The notes beneath the pieces are model-generated. The model was not told the DNA's origin, searched no databases, and saw nothing but the letters and a program-made list of their open reading frames with translations. A program made the position numbers and the translations under genes. A DNA stretch of 64,000 nt. Source: Fidelibacterota bacterium (GTDB taxonomy: Bacteria > Fidelibacterota > UBA2242). The stretch is from positions 2,780 through 66,779 of the forward strand of contig JBNGDF010000005.1 of the NCBI GenBank assembly GCA_049975265.1, in the 5' to 3' direction. Below are positions 10,484-15,515 of this stretch, piece after piece. Each line of letters begins with the position of its first letter. The stretch's first letter is position 1.

Positions 10484-10801
10484 GTAAAAATGGGATAAAT
10501 TGCGCCGGACTGAATTGCGCTTCATGGTTGCCAGCTTAAATATGGATGGCAGTGGTAATTTCGATCGCAGGGTCACGGGGAATTTGATCCGCTCTTCAGC
10601 AAAAAACGGGTAAAATTTATCTCCGGTATTCTGTCACCAATCAGTCAACCCGGTAAGAACGGCATAGCAGATAAAGTTTTAAGAATTTGTTTCGGTCTCA
10701 CCCTCTGATTTTTCCGCGAATTGCATGGAAAAAACGATAAAATATTTAATTTACAGTATGAAAACCGCCCGTTATCCGCAAAGAATTCATTCACCGCAGC
10801 T

Positions 10802-12106
10802 ATGATGCGTTCCAATTCAGCGTTTCACATAATGGCAAAACCGGTCGGTCCGCTCTGTAATCTTGCCTGTAAATACTGTTTCTATCTTGAGAAAGACAGA
10901 CTTTTCCCACCTGCTGAGAAATGGATTATGACCCCGGAGATAGTGGAAAAATTTATCCGTGAATATATCGAGTCGCAACCAACGCCGGTGGTCAGCTTTG
11001 CCTGGCAGGGCGGCGAACCGACATTAGCCGGCTTGGATTTTTTCAGGCAGGTTATCCGCCTTCAGAAAAAGTATTCTCATGGAAAAAGGATTGAAAACGC
11101 TTTTCAGACAAATGGGATTTTGCTGGACGACTGCTGGTGCGAATTCTTATCGGAAAATCGTTTTCTGGTGGGACTGTCCATCGACGGTCCCCAGGAAATT
11201 CACGATAAGTATCGCCTTTATAAGAATGGTAAACCGACCTTTGATAAGGTGATGGCTGCCCTGGACTGTTTAAAAAGACACGCTGTCGAATTCAACACCC
11301 TGACCTGTGTCTACAGAGAGAATTCCTACCGACCGCAGGAGATTTATGATTTCCTGAAGTCCATCGGCAGCCGGTTTATGCAGTTTATTCCGATTGTCGC
11401 CAGAAAAGCGCGCGATAACGATGGTACCGGACTGACCCTCGTACCTCCGACGTTTCAGGGAGAAGCGGCTGTAACCGAATGGTCGGTGGAACCTCTGCAG
11501 TATGGAAAATTTATGATGTCTGTTTTTAATAGCTGGGTAAGAAAGGATGTCGGTACATATTTTATCCAGCTGTTCGATGTATGTCTCGGGAGCTGGGTTG
11601 GTCAAAGCGCCGGACTTTGCATATTTGCCGAAACCTGCGGGTGGGCGCTGGCACTGGAGCATAATGGCGATCTGTACTCCTGTGATCACTTTGTCTTTCC
11701 TGAAAACCGGTTAGGTAACATAAGGGAGGAATCCCTCGGGAAGCTTGCAAACTCAGCGAAACAGATTCGATTCGGACGGGACAAAGCAGACACCCTGCCT
11801 CGTGTTTGCCGCCGCTGCGACGTGCGCTTTCTGTGTAATGGCGGTTGCCCCAAAAACAGGTTCGTGAAAACGACAGAGGGAGACCCTGGACTGAATTACT
11901 TATGTGCGGGCTACCAATACTTTTTCCACACAACAGCTCCATATATGCGATATATGGTCAGTGAGCTGAACAACCGGCGCCCGCCCGCCAATGTAATGGA
12001 TTTTGCGAGGCAGAAGGATAAGCATTTCCCCGGAGTCGATCGTAACGATCCCTGTCCTTGCGGCAGCGGCGTCAAGTTTAAAGACTGCTGCGGCAGCGTT
12101 CGTTAG
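10802..12106 (+). CDS. Anaerobic sulfatase maturase (radical SAM/SPASM) with C-terminal SEC-C motif
   Basis: AKPVGPLCNLACKYCFY, WQGGEPTL, YSCDHFV, C..C....CNGGCPK, LNYLCAGY, RNDPCPCGSGVKFKDCC. Confidence 0.93.
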   Translation: MMRSNSAFHIMAKPVGPLCNLACKYCFYLEKDRLFPPAEKWIMTPEIVEKFIREYIESQPTPVVSFAWQGGEPTLAGLDFFRQVIRLQKKYSHGKRIENAFQTNGILLDDCWCEFLSENRFLVGLSIDGPQEIHDKYRLYKNGKPTFDKVMAALDCLKRHAVEFNTLTCVYRENSYRPQEIYDFLKSIGSRFMQFIPIVARKARDNDGTGLTLVPPTFQGEAAVTEWSVEPLQYGKFMMSVFNSWVRKDVGTYFIQLFDVCLGSWVGQSAGLCIFAETCGWALALEHNGDLYSCDHFVFPENRLGNIREESLGKLANSAKQIRFGRDKADTLPRVCRRCDVRFLCNGGCPKNRFVKTTEGDPGLNYLCAGYQYFFHTTAPYMRYMVSELNNRRPPANVMDFARQKDKHFPGVDRNDPCPCGSGVKFKDCCGSVR

Positions 12107-12268
12107 CTCCTTTGGTGGAAATATGTACAACCGCATGTCAGAGCTATTTGCAGGATGGTGGTGTATGTGTTTTTCAGTGAAATTTTACTTTTCAACGGAA
12201 AGAATTATTGGAATTATATCCAGAATATTTAAAATACACTGTAAATCAATCAAATGGGGAAATTACGC

Positions 12269-13102
12269 ATGATGAAGGAAAAACTAATTTATCGCGGCAA
12301 ATCGAAGGATGTCTTCGAGATAAGTGCAGGATCGCATGCCGGCAAATACCGGATGGTTTTTACGGATAGGGCGACCGGCTATCTGGAAAACGGAAACCCG
12401 GTGTTTGATCCCGGTTACGATACGGTTGTCGGGGAGATTCCCGGCAAAGGAGCAATTGCCTGCCGGTTTGCCACCCATTTCTTCAAACTTCTGAAAGACA
12501 AAGGGATCCCTTCCCATTATATTGATACAGTCGGTGACAACGAAATGATTGTGGAGCCCGCCATTCCGCTGAGTATGCCGGCGGAATCCCCGGAGCTGCC
12601 CGGTTCTGCGCCGCTGCTGAACCTTGAGTTCACCTGGAGAAACAATGCGACCGGCAGTTTCTGGCGCCGGTATCCCTTCGTGAAGCCCGGTAAAAATCTG
12701 CATAAGGTTGTCGAATTATGGACAAAGGGTGATCAGGATATCCTGATTACCATGGAAGCCGTCGAAGCCACCGGAGCCATGACAAGAGCCGAAATCGCAC
12801 AGAGCGTCGGGATTGTACAAAACATCGCCGAGATCGTCTCCCGGGAATTTGCGGTTCACGATCTCCATGTCATCGATGGAAAGTTCGAGCTGGGCAGATT
12901 GAAATACGGTGATGGTGCGATCGTTATCATCGATGAAATATCCCCGGACGTCCTACGGGTCTGCAGAGGCTATGTGCCCGATACGGACGGTAATTGTATG
13001 GTCTTCAAAGAGTGTGCAGTCACCAATTTTGCTGACGACAAACGGACAATCAAGAACCGCAAACAGGTTCCAGCGTCCGATTTTATCAATATATTTCTAT
13101 GA
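12269..13102 (+). CDS. purC: Divergent SAICAR synthetase (PurC)-family ligase
   Basis: GKSKDVFE, FDPG...GKG, RNNATGS, DGKFELG, DEISPD motifs; SD GGGGA before ATG 12269. Confidence 0.75.
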   Translation: MMKEKLIYRGKSKDVFEISAGSHAGKYRMVFTDRATGYLENGNPVFDPGYDTVVGEIPGKGAIACRFATHFFKLLKDKGIPSHYIDTVGDNEMIVEPAIPLSMPAESPELPGSAPLLNLEFTWRNNATGSFWRRYPFVKPGKNLHKVVELWTKGDQDILITMEAVEATGAMTRAEIAQSVGIVQNIAEIVSREFAVHDLHVIDGKFELGRLKYGDGAIVIIDEISPDVLRVCRGYVPDTDGNCMVFKECAVTNFADDKRTIKNRKQVPASDFINIFL

Positions 13103-14364: not shown

Positions 14365-14408
14365 TACATATTTTAACCAGTAATTTACATTAAAGGGGGA
14401 GCAAGAGC

Positions 14409-15515
14409 ATGAACACGATAGAAAAAGCCCTGATGCACGGATTGTTTGTTCATTTGCATCATAATATCGATAAGGTGATTGATTTCAAAGGGTTTCAGGA
14501 GATCAACCGTCAGGTGGAAAAAATCTGGACGGGAGCCTTACTGGTGGGCCCGGAAGCCAATGACGATGCAGCGGTATTTCAATTTCCCGGAATGGATGGA
14601 TTTGTGGTGGGAAAGATGGAGAGCCACTGCTCGCCTTGTGTACCTCGTCCCTACGACGCAGCCGCTACGGGTGCCGGTGGTGCCATGCGGGATGTGGTGG
14701 CGATGGGCGCCCGCCCAATTTTTTTATTGGATTTCATCGGTACCCGGCCATTGGACCAGGAGGTAATTGTCGGACCCTGTGGATTTAAGGGGCGTTGTAC
14801 CTGCGGCAAATGTAAGGTCATGACCAGTCAGGAGCGGGTGAACATCATGGTCAAAGGTTTGGGGGATATGTGCCGGACGATGGATGTGTTTATTGTCGGC
14901 GGTGGCTTCTCCACCTCCTTTTCGGATATTGTGCCGGCGGTGGTGGTGTCGGTTATCGGCAAACTGGTTACGGAAAAGCCACTCACCAAACCGGCGAAAG
15001 ATGCGGGCGACCAGATCATCATCATCGGTGTAACCGGTAATGATGGAAACGATACCCTCTACCGCGCCGGTCTGGTCGAAGAAATGCGTCCGGCGATCGC
15101 CCTGTTTGATGAAGAAAAAGTGGCAATGGAGGCGGCGTTGGCGGCATTTGCCACCGGTCAGGTCAAAGCCTGTTCCGACCTGGGTGCAGCGGGTATCGGT
15201 GCCGCCATCTGTGAATCCGCCCGGTACGGCAAACGGGGTGCCAGAATCGATTTAACCAAAGTTCCTGTCTCTATTCAGGACATCACTCCTCAGGAAATCC
15301 TGATTTGTGAAACCCAGGCGCGGTATATCGTGCAGGTGGCGCCGGAAGCGGTGGATGAGGTGGTGGCGGCTATTCGTTCCAAAACCGAGCATGTCGCCGT
15401 CATCGGTGAAATTACCACCGCTGATCAGGAGGTTTTCGAGTATAATGGTGAGGTCATTGCCGCGATTCCCAATCAGCCGTCGCAGGCAGAGCTTGAAATA
15501 CTGAAAAGCAGTTAG
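14409..15515 (+). CDS. AIR synthase (PurM/PurL) superfamily protein, half-size, with Cys-rich insert
   Basis: NDDAAV, KMESH, PYDAAATGAGGAMRDVVAMGARPI, DLGAAG, EILICETQARY. Confidence 0.82.
   Translation: MNTIEKALMHGLFVHLHHNIDKVIDFKGFQEINRQVEKIWTGALLVGPEANDDAAVFQFPGMDGFVVGKMESHCSPCVPRPYDAAATGAGGAMRDVVAMGARPIFLLDFIGTRPLDQEVIVGPCGFKGRCTCGKCKVMTSQERVNIMVKGLGDMCRTMDVFIVGGGFSTSFSDIVPAVVVSVIGKLVTEKPLTKPAKDAGDQIIIIGVTGNDGNDTLYRAGLVEEMRPAIALFDEEKVAMEAALAAFATGQVKACSDLGAAGIGAAICESARYGKRGARIDLTKVPVSIQDITPQEILICETQARYIVQVAPEAVDEVVAAIRSKTEHVAVIGEITTADQEVFEYNGEVIAAIPNQPSQAELEILKSS

Follow-up and report, generated by a model that had tools for sequence, protein, structure and literature searches.

The window, by which we mean the whole 64,000-nucleotide stretch analysed here, carries a gene for a 368-aa protein of a half-size PurL family that is real and strongly constrained. 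Judging from its residues and its distribution among genomes, we consider it probable, at roughly two chances in three, that the protein is a stand-alone FGAM synthase, likely homodimeric and likely using free ammonia instead of PurQ/PurS. In several genomes with all other de novo purine genes, no further PurL-like protein was found. In the source genome, which is 95% complete, a normal purL of 747 aa is located elsewhere, along with purM, purC and hypE, so that the half-size gene is an extra one there. The gene and its features are as follows.

14409..15515, plus strand: gene for the half-size PurL-like protein of 368 aa, with single AIRS and AIRS_C domains
14392..14401, plus strand: Shine-Dalgarno-like AAAGGGGGAG, 7 nt upstream of the ATG, read from the sequence
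14436..14465, plus strand: N-terminal segment rich in His, H10..H15-L-H17-H18-N19, aligned with low confidence on WSEHC (PurL's first catalytic His)
14613..14639, plus strand: K69-M-E71-S72-H73-C74-S-P-C77, with the PurL KxESH retained and the N-H-P-S tail altered
14757..14816, plus strand: Cys4 insert of about 20 residues (117-136; C124, C130, C132, C135), a gap against both PurL halves
14898..14912, plus strand: GGGFS (164-168), with S168 as the invariant Ser of the PurL C-half GNVS and Asn changed to Gly
15042..15071, plus strand: remodelled lid (C-loop) reading DGNDTLYRAG; beyond it, Ala231 replaces the Gln of QVGD
15177..15179, plus strand: D257 in SDLGAAG (PurL QDMGAAG), 112/112 rows
15309..15317, plus strand: E301-T302-Q303 (PurL ESQ); E[TS]Q[AG]R in 233/239 homologues

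The earlier note on this DNA had described a protein of about half the size of small PurL, with its own Shine-Dalgarno sequence, a clean stop and no second half downstream. Re-translation of the ORF bore this out, as the start is preceded by AAAGGGGGAG, the ORF terminates in TAG TAA, and the gene that follows, in convergent orientation, encodes a hydrolase of the proline iminopeptidase family and no PurL second half. An AGGAGG-like run was seen, as judged by eye, at the same place in most homologous loci. In a Pfam profile search, PF00586 (AIRS) and PF02769 (AIRS_C) both scored above cut-off, agreeing with the note's view of a stand-alone PurM-superfamily protein; the protein has a single AIRS plus AIRS_C unit and belongs to a half-size family. 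For motif and length counts, 239 homologues were pooled from two homology searches, and 236 of them were 355-385 aa long, indicating that truncation does not account for the half size. Of 947 matches, the best 120 showed 78-93% identity at 359-407 aa, and among the best 150 matches listed in a length-free search, every match of at least 48% identity was at most 375 aa, the remainder (27-42% identity) being mostly full-length PurL. Thus, the close homologues are themselves half-size, and the motif C-x5-C-x-C-x2-C is present in 238/239 of the homologues, two points on which the earlier note had made its reading depend. FxHxHHN and GGG[FL]S were each conserved in 238/239 homologues and DGND[TS] in 239/239, and the features that the note described thus lie well outside what chance would give. 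The best 80 of 89 GTDB loci span many phyla, with record titles naming Marinimicrobia, Bacteroidales, Syntrophomonadaceae, Aminicenantes, Planctomycetes, Acidobacteria and others; matches in the ESM Atlas bore automatic names only. The dN/dS of the half-size gene was 0.02-0.06 in four pairs, and values of 0.06 and 0.02 were found for two pairs that keep normal PurL alongside it.

Profile searches and structure prediction, both proposed in the earlier note, pointed to PurL. The top profile was that of small PurL (TIGR01736), at 170.6 bits and thus below the cut-off of 525.75, with the match covering only the N-terminal ~350 positions of the small-PurL models, whereas PurM (19.8), HypE (32), SelD (41-45) and ThiL (33-35 bits) gave far lower scores against family cut-offs of 125-324. 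The AlphaFold2 model was confident (mean pLDDT 92.3, pTM 0.91), including the Cys4 insert (local pLDDT 85-92), which was predicted to form a loop joining two short strands. The closest solved structure was T. maritima PurL with FGAR (2hs3; Z 29.6, rmsd 2.4, 307 aligned residues), on residues 17-336 of which model residues 1-357 superposed; HypE came next (Z 27.9, rmsd 3.5), and the synthase domain of human FGAMS (9nal) superposed with a Z of 24.7. The ATP-binding signature of the PurM superfamily, DX4GAXP (as given in PMC13013826), was present as D95-VVAM-G100-A-R-P103, with D95, G100 and P103 invariant among filled rows.

Small PurL, or FGAM synthase II (TIGR01736, NF002290; T. maritima 2HS0/2HS3/3D54 and T. 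thermophilus 3VIU), is therefore the best match in both sequence and structure; it shares the KxESH, RD, D-x-GAAG and E-S/T-Q motifs and the C-half Ser with the half-size protein, and the reaction is likely the same. Small PurL, however, consists of tandem PurM-like units (~600-750 aa), whereas the half-size protein is one AIRS plus AIRS_C unit of ~30% identity and so has no auxiliary ADP half; it has FVHLHH in place of WSEHC, the Cys4 insert and a new lid, and its gene occurs in genomes without PurS and PurQ, with both of which small PurL works. PurM, HypE, SelD, ThiL, the sll0787 family (TIGR04049) and methanogenesis marker 2 (TIGR03267) have the same fold and size class (Z 22-28), but they match at only 20-45 bits, far under cut-offs, and with 13-22% structural identity, and the half-size protein carries PurL-specific motifs. 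Compared with large PurL (TIGR01735, TIGR01857) and human FGAMS, the half-size protein lacks the glutaminase and the N-terminal domain and has Ala for the lid Gln. The half-size protein most likely works like PurL but stands outside small PurL by size, score, lid residues and partners.

Next, we consider the active-site residues, using a profile comparison of 112 half-size rows with 89 small PurLs split into N- and C-halves. K69, E71, S72, H73, D95, D257, E301 and Q303 were invariant among the filled rows of the 112, R94 was found in 108/109, and position 302 was T or S; the corresponding PurL residues (K/E/S/H of KxESH, R/D, the QDMG Asp and ESQ) are those with catalytic roles in T. maritima PurL. 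S168 was present in 112/112 half-size rows, as was its C-half counterpart Ser in 89/89 PurLs, and stretch 151-165 fitted the C-half profile much better. As read from these alignments, the residue set is a mosaic of the catalytic N-half set and the C-half Ser. In T. maritima, the second half of PurL reportedly lends such residues to the active site; one chain with both residue sets is what a symmetric homodimer would need. Enzymes of the PurM superfamily build their active site between two A domains of a dimer or pseudo-dimer, and it is the residue mosaic that may point to such an arrangement here. The PurL active site is described as a cleft of three subdomains, with the second half holding a non-catalytic ADP (PMC13013826).

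Several positions depart from PurL. ESHCSPC (residues 71-77) in place of the canonical ESHNHPS, reported in the earlier note, was confirmed for this protein, but its two Cys vary in the family: ESH was followed by CS in 207 of the 239 homologues, by NS in 29 and by another pair in the remaining 3, and position 77 was C in 199, S in 23, A in 15 and G in 2. As the ESHC Cys is PurL's Asn in 29/239, a new catalytic residue is unlikely, and a catalytic Cys74 was disfavoured. The note's His-rich replacement of WSEHC was right in that WSEHC is absent and HLHH is present (in VHLHHN, residues 14-19, with FxHxHHN in 238/239), but the segment appears to sit at the WSEHC position and so not to be an unrelated replacement; in the profile alignment, the invariant H15, H17 and H18 fell on E50, H51 and C52 of the genome's own PurL, in a region of low confidence, and the structural superposition starts at residue 1 and so takes in this segment. 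The insert GPCGFKGRCTCGKC (residues 122-135) was also as the note had stated, and it is probably a structural metal site, for which Zn, judging by likeness of motif, seems the likelier metal, an oxygen-sensitive Fe-S cluster being possible. Finally, Ala231 takes the place of the PurL lid Gln (QVGD) in 110/112 rows, and Gly166 that of the C-half Asn (GNVS) in 112/112. In the human enzyme, the lid Gln contacts the formylglycinamide of the substrate and gates the ammonia channel, according to PMC13013826; its loss fits a channel-free enzyme and also a changed substrate.

In the proposed mechanism, the half-size protein alone would convert FGAR to FGAM (purine synthesis step 4). Small PurL is able to use ammonia without PurQ/PurS, and single-unit PurM-superfamily enzymes work as homodimers. 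ATP would phosphorylate the FGAR amide oxygen as in PurL, giving an iminophosphate, an intermediate seen for human FGAMS (PMC13013826), from which ammonia from solution would displace phosphate to give the amidine. Each subunit would supply its own site with K69, E71, S72, H73, R94, D95, D257, E301-T-Q303 and a His of HLHH, and its partner's site with D/N108, G165 and S168, as from the PurL C-half, while the Cys4 insert would hold a structural metal. In genomes that have purSQL too, the half-size protein may serve as a second, glutamine-sparing route.

The occurrence of the gene was examined in 61 genomes of the family of G019 (Syntrophomonadaceae by the title of record L023), each at least 80% complete, with PurL detected by TIGR01736 and PurQ by PF13507. 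PurL and/or a PurQ domain was found in 43/61 (G112 being counted by a PurQ fragment at a contig end only), and neither in 18/61. The half-size gene was present in 16 of the 18 genomes without PurL/PurQ, all 16 being sequence-checked (70-78% identity; contig ends truncate two), as against 11 of the 43 with PurL/PurQ, where it was identified by HMM signature only. The Fisher p was 7e-6, a value whose significance kinship exaggerates and in which the seed G019 is counted (15/17 without it). On an operon-gene tree of 46 rows (8 large-PurL genomes and 8 with too little sequence left out), loss of purSQL amounted to 10 changes, and kin-corrected pairs (n=8) fell a mean of 4.9 the expected way and 0.1 the opposite way, with a median p of 0.0625; the kin-corrected association is suggestive and below significance. 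Neither PurL nor the half-size gene was found in G072, and neither purSQL nor the half-size gene was found in the assembly of G066, where purE is directly followed by an intact purF-M-N-H-D.

Two single-contig genomes of this family, G078 (2,936,195 bases) and G058 (2,360,781 bases), carry purE-purB-purF-purM-purN-purH-purD, all above NCBIfam cut-offs, with purC located away from the operon; a search for PurS, PurQ and PurL found none in either. Each has three AIRS_C proteins, namely PurM, the half-size protein and another of ~330-340 aa. In their relatives at L226 and L227, purC-purS-purQ-purL sit between purB and purF. PurS was found in 0/5 of the half-size carriers examined for it, and the half-size-only genomes gave no match to a PurQ-type domain. 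The substrate of PurM is the product of the FGAR-to-FGAM step. The dN/dS of purF/N/M/D was 0.04-0.23 in two half-size-only pairs, compared with 0.03-0.19 (purH included) in four PurL-bearing pairs, and these genes thus remain under ordinary purifying selection in the half-size-only pairs. As a separate observation, made at L220, L221, L223, L224 and L228, the pur operon has no purC in half-size-only genomes and in G076, a genome with purSQL, a short PurC of another type being encoded elsewhere.

Among 50 carrier genomes (50 of the 80 loci), 41 had a long PurL, 1 had PurL in pieces and 8 had none, although draft genomes could conceal an unlinked large PurL. We sampled the clades around three of these 8 PurL-less carriers. 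In the order of G047 (6 genomes), which carries purD-purE and purF-purM-purH, four genomes had the half-size gene only (two of the four being seeds), one had both and one had PurL only. G009 (3.36-Mb contig) has the half-size gene and no PurL was found; its family (61 genomes) contains 6 carriers, 5 of them with PurL and G009 alone without, and neither enzyme was found in three genomes (G122, G128 and G170). All 5 carriers in the source genome's order (36 genomes) have PurL, and two genomes there, G184 and G195 (the latter 97% complete), show neither enzyme. The pattern expected of displacement was therefore absent from the G009 family and the source genome's order, which had been considered as further cases, and the existence of genomes without both enzymes means that PurL absence is not always paired with the half-size gene. 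Displacement is evident in two clades and in a single genome outside them, but does not hold everywhere. The sole purF-like gene detected in G009 (L271:7181-8584) starts MSGFFG, without the N-terminal Cys, and scores below the purF cut-off; this one genome may run both amide-nitrogen steps on ammonia. In another carrier, G014 (L269:2585-5954), purL is in about six pieces with whole flanking genes, reflecting either a decaying gene or assembly errors.

Neighbouring genes were unrelated and variable at most loci. Two of the genes that precede the half-size gene in the window are listed here.

12254..13102, plus strand: divergent PurC (SAICAR synthetase)-like gene, a second PurC copy in the source genome
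13171..14364, plus strand: CofE/F420-ligase-family gene (F420-0:gamma-glutamyl ligase), 397 aa, below NCBIfam cofE cut-offs, single copy in the genome

The most frequent partner was a divergent PurM of 376 aa, located directly downstream in 26/80 loci (best 80 of 89) and absent from view in 54/80. Among 17 genomes tested that have this arrangement, 10 showed no normal PurM beside it, and a normal PurM was present in 5/6 carriers without this partner. The divergent PurC adjoins the half-size gene in three independent settings, namely the window with its near relatives, L039 (where half-PurL, PurM-like and PurC-like genes lie in a row) and L184, and is the only intact PurC found in G009; close homologues were found in 12/50 carrier genomes, a count with no background control. 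The recurrent partners, divergent PurM and PurC, are thus all purine-pathway paralogues, each the sole copy somewhere. Fixed linkage to the PurC-like gene was rejected, as the two adjoin in 2/80 half-size loci (best 80 of 89) and 2/80 PurC-like loci. The CofE-like gene, adjoining in 1/80 loci (best 80 of 89) and only in the source genome and near relatives, is probably outside the half-size gene's function, and an operon of four genes, the radical SAM and CofE-like ones included, was dismissed as lacking conservation; in the congeneric L001, a different gene lies upstream of purC.

The half-size gene was inside none of the pur operons examined, and L012 is the only locus where it lies near purQ/purL, on the opposite strand. 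That purQ was also the only glutamine amidotransferase among the 60 neighbours scanned. The neighbourhoods examined had no tailoring, transport or sulfur-relay genes in common, and none of the 80 loci (best 80 of 89), some of them short downstream, revealed a gene for a PurL second half. A scan of 20 of the 80 loci for riboswitches or shared upstream RNAs returned only tRNAs, and upstream matches beyond near kin were short only. Some further observations concern the neighbours themselves. The divergent PurM (L037:9105-10235 and 25 other loci) shows 80-90% identity across phyla, scores 160-165 bits against the TIGR00878 cut-off of 236, and has Glu for the Asp of STDG and Gly for the His of HITGGG. 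The divergent PurC belongs to a family with inserts and 59-88% identity across phyla. The gene at 10721-12106 encodes an anaerobic sulfatase maturase above the TIGR03942 and NF010308 cut-offs with a C-terminal SEC-C motif. In L009 and L013 (Elusimicrobia records), the half-size gene begins just 3' of a tRNA gene, a possible integration site.

The earlier note had favoured a new substrate. A different substrate or nucleophile, for example in a pathway that runs parallel to purine synthesis or inserts sulfur and that also involves the divergent PurM and PurC, would make the PurL-less genomes purine auxotrophs or users of another enzyme, and could account for the altered lid, the Gln-to-Ala and Asn-to-Gly changes, the His cluster and the further conserved Cys, as well as for strong selection beside a normal PurL (dN/dS 0.06 and 0.02 in two pairs) and the genomes without both enzymes. 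It would, however, leave FGAM unmade in G078 and G058, whose other pur genes are intact, and in lineages with pur genes under selection; moreover, the neighbouring PurM and PurC paralogues act as sole copies too, the neighbourhoods seen share no tailoring, transport or sulfur-relay genes, ESH is followed by Asn in 29/239 homologues, and the PurL catalytic residues are mostly kept. With the PurS/Q/L gap filled by the half-size gene, we regard a new substrate as improbable. The conversion of FGAR to FGAM with nitrogen from an unlinked glutaminase or other donor, or in a complex with the divergent PurM, also seems rather improbable. The gap-filling evidence fits it equally well, a surface for docking or for activating the donor could be made up of the lid, His cluster and Cys4 insert, all new and invariant, and coupling to the PurM-like gene is tight in 26 of the best 80 loci of 89; on the other hand, a search of the half-size-only genomes yielded no PurQ-type domain, the sole glutamine amidotransferase among the scanned neighbours is the opposite-strand purQ of L012, and the PurM partner was not seen in 54 of the same 80 loci. 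Truncation or decay of purL, or a split gene of which this is one half, would explain why the match is limited to the N-terminal part of the small-PurL models and falls far under cut-offs, but is very improbable given the uniform length of the homologues and of all listed matches of at least 48% identity, the low dN/dS, the failure to detect a second-half gene in the 80 loci (some short downstream) and the full purL of the source genome.

If the protein is indeed a stand-alone FGAM synthase, a single 368-aa gene would fill a gap in the purine pathway of syntrophs and other anaerobes, for which current annotation gives 'AIR synthase-related' or leaves the FGAM step missing, and PurL chemistry would be possible without the auxiliary half or PurS/PurQ. 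In the portions of the literature drawn on here, FGAM synthase is described as one large protein or as three (PurS, PurL and PurQ), with an intermediate form fused to PurS in some archaea, and the synthase domain is duplicated in each of these; no description of a half-size PurL was found in the literature searched (mostly open-access, main text only).

PurL is thought to have come from duplication and fusion of a PurM-like unit, as stated in PMC5919458 and PMC13013826, and the half-size family offers a natural model for a direct test of that origin. In a deep tree of 67 rows (11 half-size proteins, 24 PurL N-halves, 24 C-halves and 8 PurM/HypE; large PurL, ThiL and SelD left out), a phylogeny of the kind the earlier note had called for, the half-size family grouped with the PurL halves, apart from the PurM and HypE rows. 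It formed a long separate branch outside the sampled N-halves, with the three-way split weakly supported (59). Constrained trees beat the quick free tree by 26.1 (family outside both halves) and 23.8 (joined to the N-halves) log-likelihood units and neither was rejected; the two placements fit about equally. The short within-family branches and patchy spread suggest recent horizontal transfer. No close member was found among plasmids, where all 36 matches were below 60% identity (~30% among the 10 listed), and a search of viral contigs returned no half-size locus. A broader scenario, which we offer tentatively and consider unlikely as a whole, is that a further, minimal form of FGAM synthase, a half-PurL that contains metal, needs no glutaminase and forms homodimers with two active sites, descends from a single-unit, pre-duplication ancestor and has repeatedly displaced purS/purQ/purL in anaerobes of ammonia-rich habitats, together with the alternative PurM and PurC.

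The cultured carriers named in the sources are Syntrophomonas erecta, S. zehnderi and Dethiobacter alkaliphilus, and those record titles that name a habitat refer largely to digesters and sediments, often ammonium-rich, an impression formed without a count. Two genomes carry two half-size copies each, G017 (C66 and C155) and G042 (C33 and C65), and in G042 the PurM-like partner is likewise present in two copies.
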